Under the pieces are notes generated by a model. It had not been told where the DNA came from. It did no database searches and worked only from the letters and a program-made list of their open reading frames with translations. 64,000 nt of DNA from Escherichia phage EP75, in the sequence record MG748547; one strand, given 5' to 3'. Numbering within the stretch: position 1 is the first letter of the stretch; every line of letters begins with the position of its first letter. Shown here one piece after another: positions 3,246 through 48,047 of this stretch. A program made the position numbers and the translations under genes.

Positions 3246-3455
3246 ATGGAATGTTCATGCGGAGGGCAAGGCACAAGTGCATACTTGCCATTTAACACCG
3301 TCAAGGAAGCCGAAGACGCTGGATATGCCGTGGACAAGGCTCCCTGTGTAATTGCCACCAAGGATTGTCCGTGCTGTAAGAGGCACTCTCAGAACGTTTG
3401 GTATGCCCCAGAAGCAAAGGGTAAAATTAATTTATTGAATATGATGAGGAAGTAA
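3246..3455 (+). CDS. small Cys-rich protein (69 aa)
   Basis: AGAGGAAA ribosome-binding site; CSCGG...CPCC cysteine cluster. Confidence 0.5.
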   Translation: MECSCGGQGTSAYLPFNTVKEAEDAGYAVDKAPCVIATKDCPCCKRHSQNVWYAPEAKGKINLLNMMRK

Positions 3456-16192: not shown

Positions 16193-16855
16193 CTATGATA
16201 ACTCATGGCGATGTCGAACACACGCAGGACAATCACAATTCTTTTTCAAAATTGGCAATTCACACCATGTCATTAAGTCATGTATTGGGGACATGTGATG
16301 ATAGAACCAAGATTTCTTGAGACTAATCAATGGATATAAAATTTCAATAGATCTTTCCCCGTCTCTGGTCATCATGTTGTATCCTTCAATAACTTTATTA
16401 AAGGCGGGTATCCAGTGTATTGCGTCATCGCCGTTAACATATGCCAAGATATACGTGGAAGGCAAGCCACTGCCTTTAAATTGCGTGTTTAATAACCATA
16501 TCGGGGCTTGTGCTAAACAAGCGCGAAAACCACCGTTCGGGACGTTGATGCTACTGATAGGTTCTTGATGATGTGTCCAACGATACATGAGAAGTGGGGC
16601 ATTTTTATTAATCCAGTTGTATATTTTATTCCTCGCCCAATTTTCGCGTTTAGATTTAAATTTATTATTTTCGAGGTGGCAATACACAGTATGAACTGAA
16701 TATCCTTTCGATAGCAACCAAATCAACATGTATGTGCTATCCACCCCACCAGACCAGAACAACGTCACTTCTTGATTATTCTGCGGCAATGGAGCATCCC
16801 CTTGAAGAACACGGTATACAAAATCACAATCAGATATTGAGACAACAATTTCCAT
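16193..16855 (-). CDS. QueC-like PP-loop ATP pyrophosphatase
   Basis: 'LFWSGGVDSTY' PP-loop and C-terminal 'CDCPACVRHR' zinc motif as in QueC. Confidence 0.55.
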   Translation of the reverse strand: MEIVVSISDCDFVYRVLQGDAPLPQNNQEVTLFWSGGVDSTYMLIWLLSKGYSVHTVYCHLENNKFKSKRENWARNKIYNWINKNAPLLMYRWTHHQEPISSINVPNGGFRACLAQAPIWLLNTQFKGSGLPSTYILAYVNGDDAIHWIPAFNKVIEGYNMMTRDGERSIEILYPLISLKKSWFYHHMSPIHDLMTWCELPILKKNCDCPACVRHRHELS

Positions 16856-33764: not shown

Positions 33765-34203
33765 TTGTTTCTCCTTTTGCTGCATACGACAGAGCTTTTA
33801 CGATCATAACAGCCAAACCGATAGGATCGTATGCATTGTCGAATTCTTGTTCTATGTTCTGACGAATTTCATCAGAAGATTGTACTTCAGAGCAGTTCTT
33901 ACTCTGTCTGCGTTGCTCTTGCTCGACTAGATCTTTGAACAGAAGGTCTTTGAAAGAATACTCATCGAAGTTTTCAAGATACCGTTGGATGCTTGGTTGT
34001 TTTACATCCATCGTTTGACGCAAATTGCTAATAGTTGAACTTGCCTGTTCGCGGTGTTTGTTCATAACAGCAAAGTTAACGGGCTTGCCCCAAGCATTCA
34101 TCACTGGATTAGAGCATACTTGGCCAAAGAGATCTTGGAAGGCATCATCCATGTGGATCAACGCAGTGGCCAATTCCTCATAAGTCGGTTTTTGAGTAGT
34201 CAT
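33757..34203 (-). CDS. hypothetical protein (148 aa)
   Basis: ORF in operon. Confidence 0.45.
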   Translation of the reverse strand: MTTQKPTYEELATALIHMDDAFQDLFGQVCSNPVMNAWGKPVNFAVMNKHREQASSTISNLRQTMDVKQPSIQRYLENFDEYSFKDLLFKDLVEQEQRRQSKNCSEVQSSDEIRQNIEQEFDNAYDPIGLAVMIVKALSYAAKGETNV

Positions 34204-34577
34204 TTTCGTTTACTCCGATTTTTATATTTCTTAGCCTGACGTTTATGTTGGGCGGCTCCATATAGGCGCGGCGGCTTTTGATAACGTTGTGACGCAATTA
34301 TGTCTCTGTCATCGGCTTCACAATACGAAATATCTGCCTTCCGTAACTGAGCCACCGCTTGAGATACCAAGGTTTTGCGTTCACTTTCTACCAGATCATC
34401 ACAAATTATCATGCGTTCACCTGGTTCACAACGACGTTTAGGAATATCGTCTACACTGATACATTCTACTTCAACGCCTTTCAACTTTTCTTGAAGGATA
34501 AAGGCCATAGCACGAGCGCCCACCCCTCCTCCAATAATTGCAATCTTTCTTGGCTTGTCAGACATAATACATTCCAT
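34200..34577 (-). CDS. mini Rossmann-like protein (about 120 aa)
   Basis: N-terminal 'KIAIIGGGVGARAMA' dinucleotide-binding motif in an unusually short ORF. Confidence 0.4.
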   Translation of the reverse strand: MECIMSDKPRKIAIIGGGVGARAMAFILQEKLKGVEVECISVDDIPKRRCEPGERMIICDDLVESERKTLVSQAVAQLRKADISYCEADDRDIIASQRYQKPPRLYGAAQHKRQAKKYKNRSKRK

Positions 34578-37970: not shown

Positions 37971-39206
37971 TCATCGTTTCAACAAAGACATGAGGTTTAC
38001 ACTGGTCGACTTCGGATTGTCCTCTATATTCCGGACGGGCATTTTCAGATTAGTGTAAACCTCAGATGGTTCCCAACGCGTACCCTGCTGCAGGTGCCAT
38101 ATATGTAGAGGAACACCCGTTTCAAAGAACACAGGCATCTTCCACTTCTGGACGCCAGGAACGTGCCCTGCAGGAGCTTTTTCGCACAACAGGGTATCTG
38201 GTAGCCAGAGGGAACGGGCTTCCCATAATGCCTTACAGGAGTACTCAGGCCAGATGCGTTCCATGTAGTCGATCTCATCCCAAGTACGCTCGGCATCCCA
38301 CCCGATGTAACGGGTATTCTTCAGACGGAAGAATTTCTTAAGCCAACAAGCACCGGAGGTCTCAAAGTTCAGACGATTGATGAACGTGATGTGGCCGAAC
38401 TCTTCAACGCATTCCTGAAACGCTTTCTCAAGGTCGTTTTCGAGTATATCACATTCTTCGTCTGTAATAGGACAACCGTTGATCTTTTTCTTCCCGTGCT
38501 TGGTCACCCAATCATCACGGTTGGATAAGAACGCCGCGCCGTTACGATTGGATTCGCTACCATCACGGTCACGCAACATGAAACCAGGGACGTCTATATC
38601 CCATATGTTACCGAAGACCATGTTCAGGGCTTCCAGGAAGTTCCATGCGCTCAGGCGACCGAAGTATTTCCATGACATCGCCGTATTCCACAGTTCAGTG
38701 AACTGGTCTTCCTTGGTAGTGCATTCCAACATCCAACGAAAAGAATCCATTTGGGTTTTACCACCCAACCAATCGATATAGGACTGAACGCACGGAATCA
38801 TCTTCGACTTACGATAACGACAATCTGTATCGAAGCGCATACGATCAAAGTTCAGGTTATACCAATCAGAAAATCGCTGAAACTCTTTCGGAGATTGTGG
38901 GGGTACAGGAAATTCACTGTAAATTGTCCATGGTCCAATCCCATTATAGCAACAACCCCACAAAAAGGCCATCCAAATCTTGCGCTCGATCTTCTCGAGC
39001 TGTGTGATGCCTTCTGTAACCTCTATGGCATAATCCATCAGACGGACTTGCTGGTTATGCTCTTCAGTGTAGGATAGCGCCTCCACCCATGCCTTGAGCA
39101 GGTACATGCGATTTTCTGGCTTACGATAATCTACTGCCAGATCAATCGGGTATTTCCATTTTTCAGGGGCTTTATACCCCTGCGGCATTTTAGAAATGTG
39201 TATCAT
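37971..39206 (-). CDS. hypothetical protein (411 aa), Trp/Cys-rich
   Basis: Large conserved-looking ORF upstream of kinase/HAD genes; no motif recognised. Confidence 0.55.
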   Translation of the reverse strand: MIHISKMPQGYKAPEKWKYPIDLAVDYRKPENRMYLLKAWVEALSYTEEHNQQVRLMDYAIEVTEGITQLEKIERKIWMAFLWGCCYNGIGPWTIYSEFPVPPQSPKEFQRFSDWYNLNFDRMRFDTDCRYRKSKMIPCVQSYIDWLGGKTQMDSFRWMLECTTKEDQFTELWNTAMSWKYFGRLSAWNFLEALNMVFGNIWDIDVPGFMLRDRDGSESNRNGAAFLSNRDDWVTKHGKKKINGCPITDEECDILENDLEKAFQECVEEFGHITFINRLNFETSGACWLKKFFRLKNTRYIGWDAERTWDEIDYMERIWPEYSCKALWEARSLWLPDTLLCEKAPAGHVPGVQKWKMPVFFETGVPLHIWHLQQGTRWEPSEVYTNLKMPVRNIEDNPKSTSVNLMSLLKR

Positions 39207-39388
39207 CCGATTTTACTCCCGAGTTCAACACGGAACGCCAGATAGAAGAAAGTGGCGATCGATACTGGACAGATCACCAAGAATGGGCGCTGTTGCACCC
39301 CTTCTGTGACCATGACGCCGACCAGCGAAACCGTAAAGATAACGAACATCAGCATCATGAAGATAAAATCAACATGCTTGATTTTCAT
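39203..39388 (-). CDS. small membrane protein (61 aa)
   Basis: Two hydrophobic helices. Confidence 0.4.
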   Translation of the reverse strand: MKIKHVDFIFMMLMFVIFTVSLVGVMVTEGVQQRPFLVICPVSIATFFYLAFRVELGSKIG

Positions 39389-39755
39389 CTTTCACTTCCT
39401 CTACAGGAGAAACAACTTCAGGCTCAGCTTCGGGAGCCAGCTGAATTTCTTCGGGGCTTACTACGGGCTGTCCCAGAGACCAGATAGGCAGGAAACGACG
39501 ATCATTCGTCACCAACCAAATTTGCTTGGCGGTTTTCGTCTTTTCGGAAATAAAATGCTGGGCATTGACCTGGGTACGAGCCAAACCCACCTGACGCCAA
39601 GAACCGAAATCCTTAGAAGAAGGATTGGTATTCAGTTGAAATTGTGGGACGATTTTATTCTGTTCCGGATAGTAACGGACAGCGTTAATCATCTTCGCAT
39701 CACCACGGTAATCAATAGCAACAGCGACAACGTTGCGTGGAATGAGGATTTTCAT
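39369..39755 (-). CDS. hypothetical protein (128 aa)
   Basis: ORF in operon. Confidence 0.45.
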   Translation of the reverse strand: MKILIPRNVVAVAIDYRGDAKMINAVRYYPEQNKIVPQFQLNTNPSSKDFGSWRQVGLARTQVNAQHFISEKTKTAKQIWLVTNDRRFLPIWSLGQPVVSPEEIQLAPEAEPEVVSPVEEVKDENQAC

Positions 39756-39756
39756 T

Positions 39757-39960
39757 TTAATTCCTTTTGAAACTCTGAATTATGTTATAGACGAAAGGCG
39801 TTAATAAGATAGCACCCCCCAAATAATATAACGCGTAAACGTTCAATATTTCGGTTGAATCCAACTCAACGATGCCCAAATATTTCATGACACCGACAAG
39901 CACAGCTGTGATACACATCACCAATCCGACGAACACAAAATATTTAGACATCTGTTTCAT
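39757..39960 (-). CDS. small membrane protein (67 aa)
   Basis: Two hydrophobic helices. Confidence 0.4.
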   Translation of the reverse strand: MKQMSKYFVFVGLVMCITAVLVGVMKYLGIVELDSTEILNVYALYYLGGAILLTPFVYNIIQSFKRN

Positions 39961-39962
39961 TT

Positions 39963-40868
39963 CTAACCCTTACTCAACAGGCCGAGAAGGGATACAGAGG
40001 ACTTTGTTACCTCTCCCTTGGCGCTCGCCTTGGTTTTAGATTTGGTCGCCTTCTCAGGGACTCGATGCGCTAGAGGATCATCCCCACCGACTTCACGCGT
40101 CATTGGGTCAGTTTCACAGAATCCGTAAAAATCTTTGATGTCCAGACCCATGGCGTGAAACTCACCACGCATTTGATGATGAATAGCGTTACCAATCACC
40201 CACAAAGGTGCATCAAACGGCATCATGGCTAATTCGCTATCATTTCCTGTTTTGAATTCTTGAGTGTTTGTAGACGATTGGCGATACAACACGTCTTGAC
40301 CGCTGTAATCATTGACCACCACTTCCCAACCCAGCGCCAGCATTTCGGCCTTCGACTTCTCAAACTCCTTGGAGTAAGATTCGTTGCGTGACCAGCCGGA
40401 ATCTCCCGCCTCTTTACCAGAACGCCCACGGATACGAGCGTCGTACTGGTAGCGGTCAGGGTATGCAAAGTACAGCAGTGCCAGTGATTCAATCGGATAG
40501 TTCTTGAACATCCATTCAGGACGCCATTTATCCGACAGCATGAGGGGTTCACCCTCGCACACCAAAGTGTAACCCTGAGCCAGCCAACCTTTGACCAGAT
40601 CACGGGCGATATCACCCGAGCCTGTGGCGGCGTGGATGGCGTCCATGGAAGTCCAGGAAGCCAGGCCGGATTTGTTAGACACAGTATACTGGCCAACGAA
40701 GATTAACTTCAGTTCTTCGAACTTCAGGCCGAATGGGCGCGTCTTGTCACCAATGGTGTAGGTGAGTTCAGTAGGGGTTAGGGTAGTGCGCAGCCATTCG
40801 ATGAACTGAACAACACGGGTGCCTTTACCCGTGCCAGAGGTTCCTTTCACTACAATTATTTTAGCCAT
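39963..40868 (-). CDS. P-loop kinase/NTPase
   Basis: N-terminal Walker A 'GTSGTGKGT' in a roughly 300-aa protein. Confidence 0.55.
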   Translation of the reverse strand: MAKIIVVKGTSGTGKGTRVVQFIEWLRTTLTPTELTYTIGDKTRPFGLKFEELKLIFVGQYTVSNKSGLASWTSMDAIHAATGSGDIARDLVKGWLAQGYTLVCEGEPLMLSDKWRPEWMFKNYPIESLALLYFAYPDRYQYDARIRGRSGKEAGDSGWSRNESYSKEFEKSKAEMLALGWEVVVNDYSGQDVLYRQSSTNTQEFKTGNDSELAMMPFDAPLWVIGNAIHHQMRGEFHAMGLDIKDFYGFCETDPMTREVGGDDPLAHRVPEKATKSKTKASAKGEVTKSSVSLLGLLSKG

Positions 40869-41173
40869 TATGCATCTTCCTCAATACGCCAGCTCACACC
40901 ACCCAACCAGGGAGACCAGAAAACAGCAACCTGTGGGCGATCGTTTTCTACAAACTTCACTTTATACTGGTCATCAAAGTTATAGAAAATTTCGTCGTCA
41001 TCAGGTGCCATACCGTTTTCGATCAGAACTCGTTTTAATTCCAACGCTGCGCCAACGGAAGTTGGTGGATTCTGATTACGGATGAAGTTGTTTACATGGA
41101 TAATGATACCATCCATATCACTGTCACCGGAACGCTTGTCAGGGCTTTCTACAACTTTATTTTGTTCTTGCAC
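40868..41173 (-). CDS. hypothetical protein (101 aa)
   Basis: ORF in operon. Confidence 0.45.
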   Translation of the reverse strand: MQEQNKVVESPDKRSGDSDMDGIIIHVNNFIRNQNPPTSVGAALELKRVLIENGMAPDDDEIFYNFDDQYKVKFVENDRPQVAVFWSPWLGGVSWRIEEDA

Positions 41174-41182
41174 GATGTGCTC

Positions 41183-41965
41183 CTATCGGACATATTGATA
41201 ATGAGAAACCAGGCGATTCACCACTTCATCGAGGTTACGATTTAAGAAGTCAAAGTGGTTTTGGCCTTCTACATGCTTAATATAAAGCATATCCTCGCAA
41301 TTCGAAAGATCCAGTTTTTCATAATTGCCCTGAGGGACGAAGATGACGAAGATGTTATTCAGGGCACACGGCTCAACATACTTCGGATTGTCGTCGATCA
41401 GGACATCGCCAGCAAGCAGATGCTTTTCATCCGTGCTCACGAACCCATTAATCAACGATTCAAAGTGATGGTATGTGAACTGACGCTTGCTGCGTTCGTG
41501 TTCCGGTTCGCATTTTGTAACTGCCACCATTTCCACTTGCTCAAACTTCTGAAGGAGAGAGGCCTTTAAATTCGTAAGGAATTCAACAGCCCCTGGCAGT
41601 GGTGACATTCTGGAATACAGATCAGGCATACGCCACCAATCCATCGGATCACGTCCTGTTGGCGAATCCATCCACTGACCAGCAACGAATACACGGCGCG
41701 TTAACCAGGCCGGATGCGCGCGTTCACGCATGAGGATCGCCAGATCACCAGCGTGTGACATATAGCACTCTTTGGTGATTGGTTGAAATTCAGATGGGTA
41801 GTCGTGACATCCCATATTTTCCGCAGCGGCTTTAGAATTAGAGATATTGAACCATTCAACCCACGGCGAAAGGGAATCAACCAGAGTCAAATCCACATCC
41901 ACCAGAACGCGATATAACCCGCCAATTTTAGAACATGCGTCATACAGACCAACGTGATTATTCAT
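41183..41965 (-). CDS. HAD-superfamily phosphatase (deoxyribonucleotidase-like), putative
   Basis: Start set to ATG 41965 (GGAGAAA ribosome-binding site); 'VLVDVDLTL' motif I and 'GDVLIDDNPKY' motif IV. Confidence 0.5.
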   Translation of the reverse strand: MNNHVGLYDACSKIGGLYRVLVDVDLTLVDSLSPWVEWFNISNSKAAAENMGCHDYPSEFQPITKECYMSHAGDLAILMRERAHPAWLTRRVFVAGQWMDSPTGRDPMDWWRMPDLYSRMSPLPGAVEFLTNLKASLLQKFEQVEMVAVTKCEPEHERSKRQFTYHHFESLINGFVSTDEKHLLAGDVLIDDNPKYVEPCALNNIFVIFVPQGNYEKLDLSNCEDMLYIKHVEGQNHFDFLNRNLDEVVNRLVSHYQYVR

Positions 41966-42302
41966 CAGATTTCTCCACTTGATCATAACCAGTTGCGGTG
42001 CATTGTTCTTCGGTGCAATCGGCATACAGAACCACAGAAGATTCCTTCACGTAAGTGGTGCAGTGATAGGTTTCATCTTCCTGGATGGAATCATCATAAT
42101 TGCAAACAGTTTGCAACGGACCAGGAGTGGTGTTGTCCAAAGCTGCATGTGCCTTGATGGTGTCTTCCATCTTATTCACCGCTTGCTGATTGGTGAACGT
42201 CGGCGCATCGAGGTCAACGGTAGACGCAACGTCCAGAAGGGTAGAGCATGCAGTGGTAGAGAAAGCCAGAGCACACACCAGAAGAATCTTATTGAGTTTC
42301 AT
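41958..42302 (-). CDS. putative lipoprotein (114 aa)
   Basis: 'MKLNKILLVCALAFSTTAC' signal peptide with lipobox-like Cys; four more Cys in mature part. Confidence 0.5.
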   Translation of the reverse strand: MKLNKILLVCALAFSTTACSTLLDVASTVDLDAPTFTNQQAVNKMEDTIKAHAALDNTTPGPLQTVCNYDDSIQEDETYHCTTYVKESSVVLYADCTEEQCTATGYDQVEKSDE

Positions 42303-42362
42303 AACAATACCTGTTGTCAAAGGGATAACAGGGGGAATTATATCCCCCTTTGTTTTATTGAA

Positions 42363-45359
42363 TCAACCTTTCTTGCCCATCATGGACAACAGATTAACTC
42401 GACGTTTGTGAGACCAACCAACCACGTCTAGAATAGACTGTATCGGCTCTATGAAGGTCTTTTCAAACGTAGTGTGGTAATCTACCCACTTATCCAGCCC
42501 CAACTCCGGAGGGAGGAAGTCAGGGAAGGCTATGCGGTCGTTCCCCACAGGGTTCCCAGGTTTCAGGTTAATGATTTTAACCTTATCGCCAGATTCTATC
42601 GGCGGGAGACCGAGGTCTTCATGCTTGTCTATCAGCTTGTTGTACATAATACAAGCCTTGGCAGCAAAGTGTGTGCCACTGATATAATTCCCGTTCGCGT
42701 CTAACCACTTCTCAATATCACTAACGCCAGAGGCTTGAGCAATATCATCCACGGTTAATTCCATATATTCCTTCTTATAACCCGCGATCAATTCCTGAAC
42801 TTCAGCCTCCGTCCCCAGCAGAACTTTCTCATAGCATTTAACCAGACGTTCACGACACCATTCCGGCGTTGTAGATTTACGCGCTTCCAGACCTTTGAAT
42901 TTGATCTTTGGCTTCTCATACTTGATGCCTTCGCTATCGTATACTGCCATGCAATACATCTTCTTGGCTCGCCATACAGCAGACGATGCGATGACCTCAC
43001 GTTCCCAGACCATGCGCTGCTCAAACCCGTTCATGGTATTACACAACAACTGCGCCCATTCACTGGTTTTTGGCTGGTAATTCTCTTTGATCCATTGGTC
43101 AATGTTATCAACGAGTTTGTGATGGTCCTTTTCTTCAGGCCACAATTGCTTGACCAGGCGTTCAATGCAAATGTAGTTGGAGTCAGTATCACCCGCGATA
43201 ACAAAATCCTGACCAGTAGTGCCGCAAAGTTTGTTCAGATAATCATCGGTGTGGCGTTTGTTCCATTTGTTGATCAGCTGGCCGGAAGTGGTGATTGCTT
43301 CAGCGATGTTGATGTTGAAGTATTCTTTAAACCAGACGTTAGAAATTGCGCCATATCCTGCGTTCATCAAGATTTTCAGACCTTGTTGTAACGTATCTTG
43401 GGCAACTCCCAAATCTTCCCACTTATGCATGACTTCAGTCAGGTGATCAAGATCGATGTGCTTGTGTTCTTCATACCATTCAGGATCGTAGAAACGAGAC
43501 TTCATGGCGGATTCAAGGTGGAAATCACCTTTAGACATCTCCTTACACCAACCAGCCCATTGCTCATATTTCAGGCCTGTTGCTTTCTCCCCTTTACGGT
43601 CAGCGTATATGCCTCGCATAATTTCGGAAAGGAAGGACATCTTCTCATTACTGAAGAACTGAACGTTCGGGGTAAACGAAACGTTATATCGGCGTAGTGT
43701 TTCAAAATGGAATTCGCCCAGCGCGACCAATTCATCAACAACTTGTATGCGTTCATCAATAGCACGCTGCAACTTGTCGTGAAGATTTTTGAGATGACGA
43801 CGTTTATTCATCGGCGTTGTCATATCATTCATCGCTTTGGTCAATTCCTCACACATGGCCTCAATAATATCACGGCGGGTGTGCTTATCAGAAACGATAG
43901 TCTCTGGACCAAGGTTGTATTGTTGTATAATGTGAGGGTACAGGGAGTTTAAGTCCTCAGAGAAGACCCAGAAATATATCCCTGGTGTAACCTCCATGAC
44001 ATACGCGCCTTCAAAATCTGTTGGCCCGTCATAGACGCGCTGTATTTTAGGGACAATCCCCTTTTCATAAAGACGATAATAGCACATTGCCAGCCACGGT
44101 GCTACAGTGCCGAGACCGTCTTCATAGTTAGATTTGGTGCGATACGCCAATACAAACATCAGCTGTATCAAACGCAGTTTTTGTTCTAAGCGCCACACGA
44201 GTTTGACGTCTTTGATACCATATCGCGTATGCTTGCAATAATCATTGAAATAAAGGTCATACAACGATTTGCTTTCACTATAATCCAACTTCTTCTCGCC
44301 GAGTTCACAATAAGCGATCCAGTCCAGTGAGTATTTTTCGCGGGTGGTGTAAGTGTGCTTCTTGTACACTTGCATGTAGTCCATCATTGGACAACCCACA
44401 AACTGATAAGACGTGACGTCCCCTTTACGGTCTTTGATGAAACGTTTCTTCAGTTTACCCCAAGGGCTGAGACGTTCGGCTTGTGTTTCACCAAGAACCT
44501 GCGTAATTCGTTCAACCAAATAGGGGCTATCGAACGTTTCAATGTTCCACCCCGTCCAACCGTCAAATTGACGTTCCGACCAGTAATCCAAGAAGGCGCG
44601 AAGCAGATCTTGTTCCGTCGTATATTCTTTATATTCGACCTCAAGACCGCCGACTTCTTCATCATTGGGATCATATTTGAATTTATGGCGATCCTTGGAA
44701 CACGGCATACCCCAGACATAGAATTTGTTGGTATTCATATCTTGGAGCTGAATCAGCGTAATAGGGAACGCTGCATTCATGTTCTGGGTGATCTTACCAT
44801 TACTGTCGATGATTGGGAATTGATCAGTAACATTGTTGGAAATAAAGGAACCAGGGAAATGCTCCCGAACGAAGTCATGGTTGGCCAGGACTTGCTTATG
44901 GAAGCGGCGAACCCGCGCCTCGCTGCCTTTAAACGTGTGGGATTCAATGGTTGCGTGTGGGAATGGACCTTTAGTCATTTCTCCGTCACGCCAACCAGCC
45001 GAGAACACTTCGATATCCACGTTGGCGATGTGGATATTTGAATAATCAGGTGTGATCATCCCAGGAAAACTATGGGCGATGAATTGATATGCATAATCCG
45101 TTTGTCCATACACCGCAGCGCCTTCGACCTCCTTGTACTCCTCAAGATAGTTGTCAGCGTCGCGCATTGATGCAAACTTTTTAGACACCAACGGTTCGTT
45201 GAGGAGGCCAATCTTTTCAACTTTGGAATAATCAGCTGTGGGTAAATACAAGGTGGGTTCGAATTTCTTACGCAACATTCGGCGATTGCCGTTGTCGTCT
45301 GCGATACGAATCAGAAGGTCGTTACCCTGTCGGGCAACGTTCGTATAGAAAACAGTCAT
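42363..45359 (-). CDS. DNA polymerase, family B (T4 gp43-like)
   Basis: 'DIEV' exo I, 'SLYPHI' and 'IAGDTDSNY' motifs; start re-assigned to ATG 45359 (GGAG ribosome-binding site), giving 999 aa. Confidence 0.9.
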   Translation of the reverse strand: MTVFYTNVARQGNDLLIRIADDNGNRRMLRKKFEPTLYLPTADYSKVEKIGLLNEPLVSKKFASMRDADNYLEEYKEVEGAAVYGQTDYAYQFIAHSFPGMITPDYSNIHIANVDIEVFSAGWRDGEMTKGPFPHATIESHTFKGSEARVRRFHKQVLANHDFVREHFPGSFISNNVTDQFPIIDSNGKITQNMNAAFPITLIQLQDMNTNKFYVWGMPCSKDRHKFKYDPNDEEVGGLEVEYKEYTTEQDLLRAFLDYWSERQFDGWTGWNIETFDSPYLVERITQVLGETQAERLSPWGKLKKRFIKDRKGDVTSYQFVGCPMMDYMQVYKKHTYTTREKYSLDWIAYCELGEKKLDYSESKSLYDLYFNDYCKHTRYGIKDVKLVWRLEQKLRLIQLMFVLAYRTKSNYEDGLGTVAPWLAMCYYRLYEKGIVPKIQRVYDGPTDFEGAYVMEVTPGIYFWVFSEDLNSLYPHIIQQYNLGPETIVSDKHTRRDIIEAMCEELTKAMNDMTTPMNKRRHLKNLHDKLQRAIDERIQVVDELVALGEFHFETLRRYNVSFTPNVQFFSNEKMSFLSEIMRGIYADRKGEKATGLKYEQWAGWCKEMSKGDFHLESAMKSRFYDPEWYEEHKHIDLDHLTEVMHKWEDLGVAQDTLQQGLKILMNAGYGAISNVWFKEYFNINIAEAITTSGQLINKWNKRHTDDYLNKLCGTTGQDFVIAGDTDSNYICIERLVKQLWPEEKDHHKLVDNIDQWIKENYQPKTSEWAQLLCNTMNGFEQRMVWEREVIASSAVWRAKKMYCMAVYDSEGIKYEKPKIKFKGLEARKSTTPEWCRERLVKCYEKVLLGTEAEVQELIAGYKKEYMELTVDDIAQASGVSDIEKWLDANGNYISGTHFAAKACIMYNKLIDKHEDLGLPPIESGDKVKIINLKPGNPVGNDRIAFPDFLPPELGLDKWVDYHTTFEKTFIEPIQSILDVVGWSHKRRVNLLSMMGKKG

Positions 45360-45438
45360 TGTTTGTCTCCGGTTAACCGTGCCGTCAGCACGTCCCCGTA
45401 ATTTAACCGAGGAACGTTCAATGACCAAGGAGTTTAAA

Positions 45439-46011
45439 ATGGCAATCCCCTTTGTGAGCATGATTCCAGGGGCGCTAAAGCAACTCTGGAATCTTGGGAC
45501 TGATTTGGTGCAATATAAGCGGGAAATTGTTCAGGCTAAACACGATGTTAAACTGGAGGCAATAAAGTCTTCTTCAGAATGGGAACTTTCTAAGATTACC
45601 GAAGTCGGCGGTTCTTGGAAAGATGAATTCTGGACAATCGTTTTGGCTGTTCCCGCTATCCTTGTTATGATCGCTCCGGTTGTGGAACTTCTAATGTTCC
45701 CCACCGAGTATCATAAAGGGGATTTCATCAAAGCAGTAATTGATGGTATGCAAGCCCTTGAAACAGCACCTGATTGGTATACTGCTTCGCTATTGACAGC
45801 AATTAGTGCATCATTCGGTATCAAGGGGTACAACCATTACAAAAGCAATAGCCGGAAGGCGCAAGCTGTGGATGCTCTCAAACAGTTTGGGGTCAAAGTG
45901 GTTAACAAAGATCCCACTGTTGTTACTCAGTCGGGTTCTCCCGATCTTGAGTCTGCTCCCCCAGCTGGGTCTACTGCGACCTCTGGTGCGTGGCCTGATC
46001 TGAAGAAATAA
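45439..46011 (+). CDS. membrane protein (about 191 aa)
   Basis: ATG 45439 with AAGGAG ribosome-binding site; central transmembrane helix 'FWTIVLAVPAILVMIAPVV'. Confidence 0.45.
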   Translation: MAIPFVSMIPGALKQLWNLGTDLVQYKREIVQAKHDVKLEAIKSSSEWELSKITEVGGSWKDEFWTIVLAVPAILVMIAPVVELLMFPTEYHKGDFIKAVIDGMQALETAPDWYTASLLTAISASFGIKGYNHYKSNSRKAQAVDALKQFGVKVVNKDPTVVTQSGSPDLESAPPAGSTATSGAWPDLKK

Positions 46012-48038: not shown

Positions 48039-48047
48039 ATATTTAGG
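48039..48047 (-). promoter_or_regulatory. late-promoter-like motif CCTAAATAT
   Basis: About 32 nt upstream of the 48007 start codon. Confidence 0.4.

Follow-up and report, generated by a model that had tools for sequence, protein, structure and literature searches.

We analysed a 64,000-nucleotide stretch of the genome of Escherichia phage EP75 (sequence record MG748547; hereafter, the window) and focused on a gene block at positions 37971-41965. An initial annotation described this block as a P-loop kinase, a 411-amino-acid (aa) protein, three tiny membrane proteins and a HAD phosphatase directly downstream of the DNA polymerase. All of these open reading frames (ORFs) are present on the minus strand, with the kinase gene at 39963-40868, the gene for the 411-aa protein at 37971-39206, three small ORFs between these two, and the HAD gene at 41183-41965. 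The polymerase gene encodes a T4-type family B enzyme (42363-45461, minus strand; Pfam DNA_pol_B_exo1 and DNA_pol_B) and is collinear with the polymerase gene of Salmonella phage ViI, whose annotated start is equivalent to ~45359. The block indeed lies downstream of it, with one small gene (DUF7292, 41958-42320) before the HAD gene.

The window comes from a Kuttervirus genome (ViI-like, Ackermannviridae), and the region shares 97.5% identity with Salmonella Kuttervirus phages. By alignment, it matches 273 phage records, nearly all of them Ackermannviridae, and the gene arrangement is kept in at least 174 phage records with a coverage of the region of 80% or more; thus, the set of ORFs is not a chance one. 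The entire window is collinear with ViI in reverse orientation, the matching ViI interval starting at 33.8 kb, crossing the record origin and finishing at 126 kb, and ViI orf00243 (gp243) and orf00247 (gp247) sit at positions matching those of the kinase and the 411-aa ORF. Between DUF7292 and the 411-aa ORF, successive genes are separated by -20 to +9 nt, so that the block looks like one transcription unit. A promoter scan did not rise above shuffled expectation, and a terminator scan revealed no clear operon boundaries.

The kinase and the 411-aa protein are orthologs of ViI hypermodification enzymes

The kinase had been proposed to act on 5-hydroxymethyl-deoxyuridine (5-hmdU) in DNA, and our analysis bears this out. 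The 301-aa protein matches the Pfam family HMUD2 ("5-hmdU DNA kinase 2", PF18747) over the whole profile (positions 1-298 of 298; E 7e-150; 498.6 bits, cut-off 25). Its ortholog is ViI gp243, with 86% identity (BLASTP). ViI gp243 and gp67 phosphorylate 5-hmdU in DNA to 5-phosphomethyl-dU (5-PmdU), with ADP as the by-product (PMC8989533). The Walker A motif of the window kinase is GTSGTGKGT (G9-T17). Alignment with four characterised or predicted 5-hmdU DNA kinases (5-HMUDKs; ViI gp243, ViI gp67, M6 gp54 and PaMx11 gp49) revealed that G9, G12, G14, K15, T17, E105 and G106 are invariant, and the glycine that follows the Walker A lysine (GKGT) is the same as in the active ViI gp243. By orthology to gp243, the window kinase is predicted to phosphorylate 5-hmdU in DNA. 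A PDB sequence search with the kinase returned nothing relevant.

The 411-aa protein, which contains 22 Trp (5.4%) and 11 Cys (2.7%), had been thought to lack any recognisable motif and perhaps to represent a new family. This part of the initial annotation did not hold, because the protein matches the Pfam family ADDT (PF18724; E 2.5e-57, 194.7 bits, cut-off 26.2) and carries the conserved motif described below. ViI gp247, M6 gp51 and PaMx11 gp46 match the same family, and the M6 and PaMx11 proteins have been characterised biochemically. By its sequence, the 411-aa protein is a clear member of this known and structurally characterised family of amino acid:DNA transferases (AADT/ADDT, formerly aGPT-Pplase2). 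The accompanying suggestion that it is a transferase acting on the phosphorylated base proved sound: its ortholog, at 91% identity (BLASTP), is ViI gp247, and purified gp247 transfers L-serine to 5-PmdU via the serine hydroxyl (PMC8989533). A conserved Cys and a neighbouring Glu of gp247 are essential, as the Cys-to-Ala and Glu-to-Ala mutants are inactive (PMC8989533). From the 91% identity to gp247, we infer that serine, O-linked, is also the co-substrate of the window transferase.

Of 61 transferase homologs collected (41-99% identity), 46 were aligned, and 45 of these contain the catalytic and metal-binding motif E-T-x(2-3)-C-W-x-K-K. The crystal structure of PaMx11 gp46, the 5-PmdU glycinyltransferase PUGT (PDB 8z2m), contains a catalytic Cys and Glu/Thr metal ligands (PMC11472151), and mutagenesis of a related enzyme confirms these roles (PMC13458397). 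Profile alignment (hhalign) placed window E282, T283 and C287 opposite E243, T244 and C247 of PaMx11 gp46. A four-sequence MAFFT alignment had instead given C85 as the catalytic Cys; this was a misalignment, and both hhalign and the 46-sequence alignment give C287. The glycine contacts of PUGT, Trp146 and Lys150, fall opposite Leu185 and Asn189, correspondences that are tentative because hhalign probabilities against single sequences are very low (1-1.5%). Identity of the window transferase to PUGT and to M6 gp51, a glycine:DNA transferase, is only 12-27%; relative to these enzymes, it is ~120 residues longer and is expected to use a serine hydroxyl rather than a glycine amine. Its AlphaFold2 model (pLDDT 91.5) is all-alpha and contains a helix-hairpin-helix, as in the PUGT-type fold. 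PDB searches with the single sequence and with the 46-sequence profile found nothing relevant, and Foldseek missed the PUGT relationship too.

The block very likely encodes the DNA-level half of a 5-NeOmdU pathway

In ViI DNA, Lee et al. identified 5-(2-aminoethoxy)methyl-deoxyuridine (5-NeOmdU) and reconstituted its synthesis from gp67, gp160, gp226, gp243 and gp247 (PMC5889632); the last step, decarboxylation of the serine adduct to 5-NeOmdU, is carried out by gp226, which depends on pyridoxal phosphate (PLP) (PMC8989533). The window encodes an ortholog of gp226 at 48532-49857 (minus strand), outside the gene block, with 98% identity over 395 aa (BLASTP). Its K109 is the equivalent of the Schiff-base K92 of gp226, and it scores 30 bits against Pfam PALP, under the 35-bit cut-off. 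Over its first ~46 residues, this ORF has no alignment to gp226, and at the nucleotide level the alignment to ViI breaks at 49719-49853; the sequence points either to a different start or to a recombination breakpoint, and the start codon is uncertain.

Following the steps shown for the ViI orthologs, phage DNA would be replicated with 5-hmdU in place of T, and the kinase would then transfer the ATP gamma-phosphate to the 5-hydroxymethyl group of this base within the DNA, forming 5-PmdU. The transferase would flip this base out, and attack of Cys287 on C6 with departure of the phosphate would leave an exocyclic methylene, to which the side-chain hydroxyl of free L-serine would add to form O-serinyl-thymidine. 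A divalent metal on Glu282/Thr283 would assist the transferase. Finally, the PLP enzyme would decarboxylate O-serinyl-thymidine to 5-NeOmdU. We therefore consider it very likely that the region encodes the DNA-level half of the 5-NeOmdU hypermodification pathway of a ViI-like Kuttervirus. The functional guess made in the initial annotation was right because the window genes are orthologous to the biochemically characterised gp243 and gp247.

The window resembles ViI in its direct orthologs (86%, 91% and 98% identity for kinase, transferase and decarboxylase), in the gene order downstream of the polymerase and in the Pfam families. It differs by ~230 extra bp that carry a 61-aa membrane ORF, by a diverged linker before the kinase tail and by the decarboxylase N-terminus noted above. 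Several points weigh against the pathway assignment. The enzyme activities were measured on ViI proteins rather than on those of this phage. A ThyA-like dUMP hydroxymethylase, a dUTPase, the second kinase gp67 (HMUD1), the second glycosylase-like protein gp160 and HMUDK_hel were not found within the window; since the upstream half of the pathway lies outside it, completeness in this genome is assumed from relatives. The ViI gp67 and hydroxymethylase genes lie ~4-5 kb past the left end of the window. Furthermore, the assignment of the HAD protein combines a modest Pfam score with a conserved position that is inseparable from shared ancestry.

GenBank and RefSeq records and PHROG 4409 label the kinase "guanylate kinase", and its P-loop kinase character would be consistent with an enzyme acting on nucleotides (guanylate or deoxynucleoside monophosphate (dNMP)), with the 411-aa protein being an unrelated hypothetical protein. 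However, the HMUD2 match spans the full length of the protein, no guanylate-kinase family scores in Pfam, and tight linkage of the kinase gene to ADDT is seen in all lineages examined. The 86% identical ViI gp243 phosphorylates 5-hmdU within DNA, so that published biochemistry already contradicts a nucleotide kinase, an explanation that we regard as extremely improbable. Published work on ViI, CBA120 and phiHS2 likewise contradicts both a dNMP or polynucleotide kinase and DNA free of modified bases, the two alternatives that the initial annotation had raised. It is also very improbable that the 411-aa protein removes bases as a helix-hairpin-helix DNA glycosylase rather than acting as a transferase: it shares the helix-hairpin-helix element with PUGT, itself a transferase, and its ortholog gp247 transfers serine.

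The pathway is already known, having been published in 2018-2021 (Lee et al. 2018 PNAS, 2021 NAR), and the main value of identifying the cluster is therefore the correction of annotation. Mislabelling is systematic: HMUD2 kinases are publicly annotated as "guanylate kinase" and ADDT proteins as "hypothetical protein" in the records surveyed (ViI NC_015296, PaMx11, M6, phiW-14 and phiA8-29). HMUD1 kinases (ViI gp67, M6 gp54, PaMx11 gp49 and phiW-14 gp37) are annotated as "terminase small subunit", and that of Cygsa01 as "baseplate hub". The labels "guanylate kinase" and "hypothetical protein" in public records and PHROGs are out of date.

DNA-level enzymes share a C-terminal peptide with the DNA polymerase

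An apparently new element in this region, not described in the papers that could be searched, is a polymerase-like tail shared by the enzymes that act at the DNA level. The polymerase ends in RRVNLLSMMGKKG (42366-42404, minus strand), presumed from homology with T4/RB69 gp43 to be its clamp-binding peptide. The kinase ends in SSVSLLGLLSKG (39966-40001, minus strand), which resembles the polymerase tail and follows a Lys/Ser/Thr-rich linker. The transferase ends in the putative clamp-binding motif TSVNLMSLLKR (37974-38006, minus strand) after a disordered linker; in the AlphaFold2 model, pLDDT is <50 at residues 390-402, and residues 405-410 form a short helix. In the decarboxylase, a similar motif is internal (SVSLAGLL; 48844-48867, minus strand) and lies in a variable loop that changes with lineage; the loop peptide used in the tail comparison is SKSVSLAGLLMG. 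ViI gp160 ends in GSVNLLDRLKKPE. The N-terminus of ViI gp67 (HMUD1), MSYSLKGLLKR, is tentatively a tail-like motif, and its counterpart was not clear in Cygsa01 or in the Vibrio-phage contig L007. Finally, a 69-aa Cys-rich protein (MECSCGG...CPCC...; 3246-3455, plus strand), the ortholog of ViI Vi01_049c, ends in KINLLNMMRK and is a candidate clamp-binding protein.

To avoid circularity, we used the polymerase tail as the sole query and scored it against the C-termini of all six-frame stop-to-stop segments. Among the 494 segments of the window (core VNLLSMM), the Vi01_049c ortholog ranked second, as the closest match, followed by the transferase in third and the kinase in fourth place. Among the 1232 segments of ViI, Vi01_049c, gp247 and gp243 took ranks 2-4, and the enzymes were also near the top in L007 and in the metagenomic contig L009. 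The codons of the tail-encoding sequences differ, so selection for the likeness acts on the protein. From genus to genus, linkers vary in both sequence and length, and the linker before the kinase tail differs even between the window and ViI; the tails stay constant. Enzymes that act at the nucleotide level (the ThyA-like hydroxymethylase, dUTPase and dNMP kinase, and probably the HAD protein) do not carry a polymerase-like tail. Unlike the window transferase, the siphovirus-type ADDT homologs, including M6 gp51 and PaMx11 gp46, lack it as well. One such tail-less homolog, on a metagenomic siphovirus-like contig (L008, 5880-9101), adjoins a Tet_JBP dioxygenase and a ParB_N protein, an arrangement that matches ParB-dependent T-dioxygenase systems, a different route to 5-hmdU (PMC13229309). 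Together, these comparisons make the shared polymerase-like tail on DNA-level enzymes a well-supported sequence observation.

Polymerase and enzyme tails change in parallel in most lineages examined

The tail is retained in five further Ackermannviridae genera despite diverging linkers. Polymerase and enzymes share it in Kuttervirus, Taipeivirus, Limestonevirus, Miltonvirus, Nezavisimistyvirus, Pseudomonas phage Cygsa01, L007, L009 and Delftia phage phiW-14, and in most lineages examined the two change in parallel. In L007, the polymerase ends in KARKLW, the HMUD2 kinase in KTKKLW, ADDT in KTRKLW and HMUDK_hel in STKRLW. In L009, the corresponding tails are ETSALW (polymerase), TTNDLW and NKSSLW (two kinases), EENALW (ADDT) and QENSLW (HMUDK_hel). 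An LW end is found in all nine polymerase and enzyme genes of these two contigs (9/9) and in only 5 of ~4100 other six-frame segments across all loci examined. Cygsa01 instead carries KASVMDFFS on its polymerase, TTKNVFDLF on HMUD2, TTNDLMGFFQ on ADDT and TTKSVLDLF on HMUDK_hel. The aligned loop of the Cygsa01 decarboxylase, HTASLTSFFG, is of the FF type like the tails of that phage and unlike the Kuttervirus motif.

phiW-14, a biochemically studied hypermodifying phage that lies outside Ackermannviridae and has a T4-type replisome, served as a test chosen in advance. Its polymerase ends in AKLGAFFV, its 5-HMUDK gp37 in HGLGGFFKG and its putrescine:DNA transferase gp109 in TTGLGSFFR. Further tails are found on gp72 (TTTTLAQFAP) and on the late-transcription co-activator gp33 (TTSLGGFAAT).

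Other phiW-14 proteins end similarly. The exonuclease (gene 32; L020, 26496-27356) ends in ...QGLGGFFA and an NrdA.1-like protein (L021, 23189-23488) in ...RGLGAFFT; both thus carry the tail type of the polymerase, gp33 and the modification enzymes and are candidate clamp clients. In Dickeya phage LIMEstone1, the tail is retained on a 531-aa kinase that has a homing-endonuclease-like N-terminus fused to it.

In the Cygsa01-like lineage, only 1-3 kb separate the HMUD2-ADDT-HMUDK_hel cluster from the genes for the sliding clamp and clamp loader downstream of it (L012 14898-15578, L013 13852-14535 and Cygsa01 33790-34473). The gp62-like small clamp-loader subunit (ViI Vi01_133c; Cygsa01 gp62; L012 16619-17020; L013 15565-15969) has a conserved N-terminal [SG]-L-F-D-[YW]-L peptide, which resembles the FD/FF-type enzyme tails of this lineage.

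The tails may tether hypermodification enzymes to the sliding clamp

In T4, the proteins gp43, gp33 and gp55 bind the gp45 sliding clamp through C-terminal epitopes that closely resemble, and can replace, one another; a co-crystal structure of the RB69 clamp contains the 11 C-terminal residues of the RB69 polymerase (PMC2988020). The peptides described here have in common with these ligands a short hydrophobic extreme C-terminus, a variable flexible linker and likeness to the polymerase. They differ in that the carriers are DNA base-modifying enzymes rather than transcription factors, and in that the Kuttervirus motif is basic. That the enzymes share the polymerase tail, which in phiW-14 is also found on gp33, suggests clamp tethering. 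The tail peptides would bind a gp45-type clamp and so bring the enzymes to newly replicated DNA, which would physically couple hypermodification to the fork. We put the probability that the kinase, transferase and decarboxylase are tethered in this way, making hypermodification replication-coupled, at roughly 60%. With the same degree of confidence, we propose that HMUD2, HMUD1, ADDT, HMUDK_hel and the PLP decarboxylase carry a clamp-binding peptide in phages with T4-type replisomes (Ackermannviridae, Cygsa01-like phages and phiW-14). The sliding-clamp gene itself lies outside the window (ViI Vi01_135c).

Several observations count against clamp tethering, and some of them favour a different partner for tails that are nonetheless real, such as a chaperone, a protease adaptor or another hub in the replisome or in a "modification factory". 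In Kuttervirus, the tails combine hydrophobic with basic character (...LLSKG, ...LLKR, ...MMGKKG), without the acidic character of T4 gp43, gp33 and gp55, and the motif is not obvious in ViI gp33 or gp55. In Aeromonas phage phiA8-29, the polymerase ends in VNVLKFFK, unlike its three enzymes, which end in K-K/R-L-W. In Cygsa01, an ungapped BLOSUM ranking left the enzymes outside the top ten, though their tails are visibly related. Against such a partner, the peptide is the polymerase's own C-terminus in at least seven lineages, phiW-14 gp33 carries it too, and no ligand other than the gp45 clamp is established as common to the C-termini of T4 gp43 and gp33. Several variants, for example SVMDFFS, NVFDLF and PLFD, look like classical clamp motifs, and the Cygsa01-type tails (SVMDFFS, NVFDLF) are both acidic and hydrophobic. 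We therefore consider a non-clamp partner unlikely, though worth keeping in mind. Two further caveats attach to the clamp as the ligand: a claimed interaction between T4 alpha-glucosyltransferase and gp45 was not reproduced in a recent preprint, and the pathway papers do not mention a clamp, nor did full-text literature searches, whose coverage was incomplete, find a link between these enzymes and a clamp.

The likeness of the tails could in principle reflect chance, C-termini of low complexity or a DNA repeat at the ends of genes. Each motif spans just 6-9 residues, and our first regular expressions were designed after the sequences had been seen. However, with the polymerase tail as the only query, the enzymes took ranks 2-4 or 2-5 in ViI, the window, L007 and L009, and the distribution of LW ends, the parallel change across lineages, the recurrence in phiW-14 and the differing codons all argue against such an origin. 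An origin of this kind is highly improbable, and we retain clamp tethering as the preferred interpretation of the tails.

Eukaryotic maintenance methylation is coupled to replication through the clamp, by way of DNMT1 and PCNA. Clamp-bound hypermodification enzymes would be a bacterial-virus counterpart of this clamp-coupled epigenetic maintenance, at a time when the claim for T4 glucosyltransferase and gp45 is disputed. Both the DNMT1-PCNA case and the proposed T4 alpha-glucosyltransferase-gp45 case share the concept of a clamp-recruited post-replicative modifier and involve unrelated enzymes and motifs. If clamp tethering is correct, it would explain how sequential enzymes reach fresh 5-hmdU DNA before packaging and could help to account for the limited share of thymidines that is modified (~16-40%) and for the contexts or strands concerned. 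A clamp and clamp loader would then stimulate in vitro reconstitutions, which would be useful for enzymatic DNA labelling. In addition, the peptide would provide a marker in the sequence that separates DNA-acting from nucleotide-pool enzymes of the pathway and flags clamp clients such as the 69-aa protein at 3246-3455.

The HAD protein and neighbouring genes

The initial annotation was also right that a HAD protein is encoded at 41183-41965 (minus strand; start as annotated in ViI, with the longest ORF reaching 42025). HAD motif I (DVDLT) is found at residue 23 and motif IV (LIDDNP) at residue 189, and the protein scores above the cut-off for Pfam NT5C (31.4 bits against 24.8). It resembles NT5C-type 5'(3')-deoxyribonucleotidases, sharing motif I (DxDxT/V) and the DD motif with the human enzymes cdN and mdN, and matches human mitochondrial deoxyribonucleotidase structures weakly; it differs from NT5C in being ~60 residues longer and in its very low identity. 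It is 99% identical to ViI Vi01_194 and does not carry a polymerase-like tail. It probably acts on the free deoxynucleotide pool (for example, in dTMP removal) and not on DNA. All Ackermannviridae genera examined, as well as relatives further away, have a HAD homolog close to the kinase. Because this distribution follows the phage family, the linkage is no proof of a role in the pathway, and published pathway papers do not mention the protein.

The description of three tiny membrane proteins between kinase and transferase fits two of the three ORFs. A 67-aa protein (39757-39960, minus strand; Vi01_197 ortholog, PHROG 4514) has a transmembrane-like segment with a hydropathy peak of 2.54, and a 61-aa protein (39203-39388, minus strand; PHROG 7943 "membrane protein") has two such segments and is annotated in close relatives. 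By hydropathy, the 128-aa Vi01_198 ortholog (39369-39755, minus strand; PHROG 4163) is instead a soluble protein with no transmembrane segment. The 61-aa ORF sits in the ~230 bp absent from ViI (alignment gap 39208-39439), which marks an indel within the kinase-transferase block. In L007, L009, L012, L013, phiA8-29 and Serratia phage phiMAM1, the kinase gene is immediately next to the transferase gene. Their adjacency in Vibrio-phage relatives, two metagenomic relatives and phiMAM1 indicates that the small ORFs are lineage-specific insertions.

A fourth small gene, absent from the initial annotation, encodes a DUF7254 protein of 101 aa (40868-41173, minus strand; Pfam PF23912, E 7.5e-48) in the block. 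The DUF7292 protein (41958-42320, minus strand; Pfam PF23964, E 2.9e-53) has a lipoprotein-like signal sequence whose hydrophobic N-terminal segment ends in ...AFSTTAC, and several relatives are annotated "lipoprotein"; its true start is probably the Met six codons into the ORF.

Identity across 39963-41965 is a mosaic. The kinase is 86% identical to that of ViI and 98-99% identical to those of many other Kuttervirus phages; the neighbouring HAD gene shows the reverse, with 99% identity to ViI and ~86% to the other Kuttervirus phages. Homing endonucleases are inserted in this region in relatives such as SilasIsHot and pertopsoe.

Elsewhere in the window, a 149-aa protein directly downstream of the decarboxylase gene (48043-48492, minus strand) matches Pfam ART-PolyVal (ADP-ribosyltransferase) and DUF3990. 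Three tRNA genes (Tyr-GTA, Asn-GTT and Met-CAT) lie at 51918-52733 (minus strand) in a region only partly alignable to ViI. A 220-aa protein at 16193-16855 (minus strand) has weak matches to the PP-loop ATPases QueC and ThiI and is labelled "QueC-like" in ViI.

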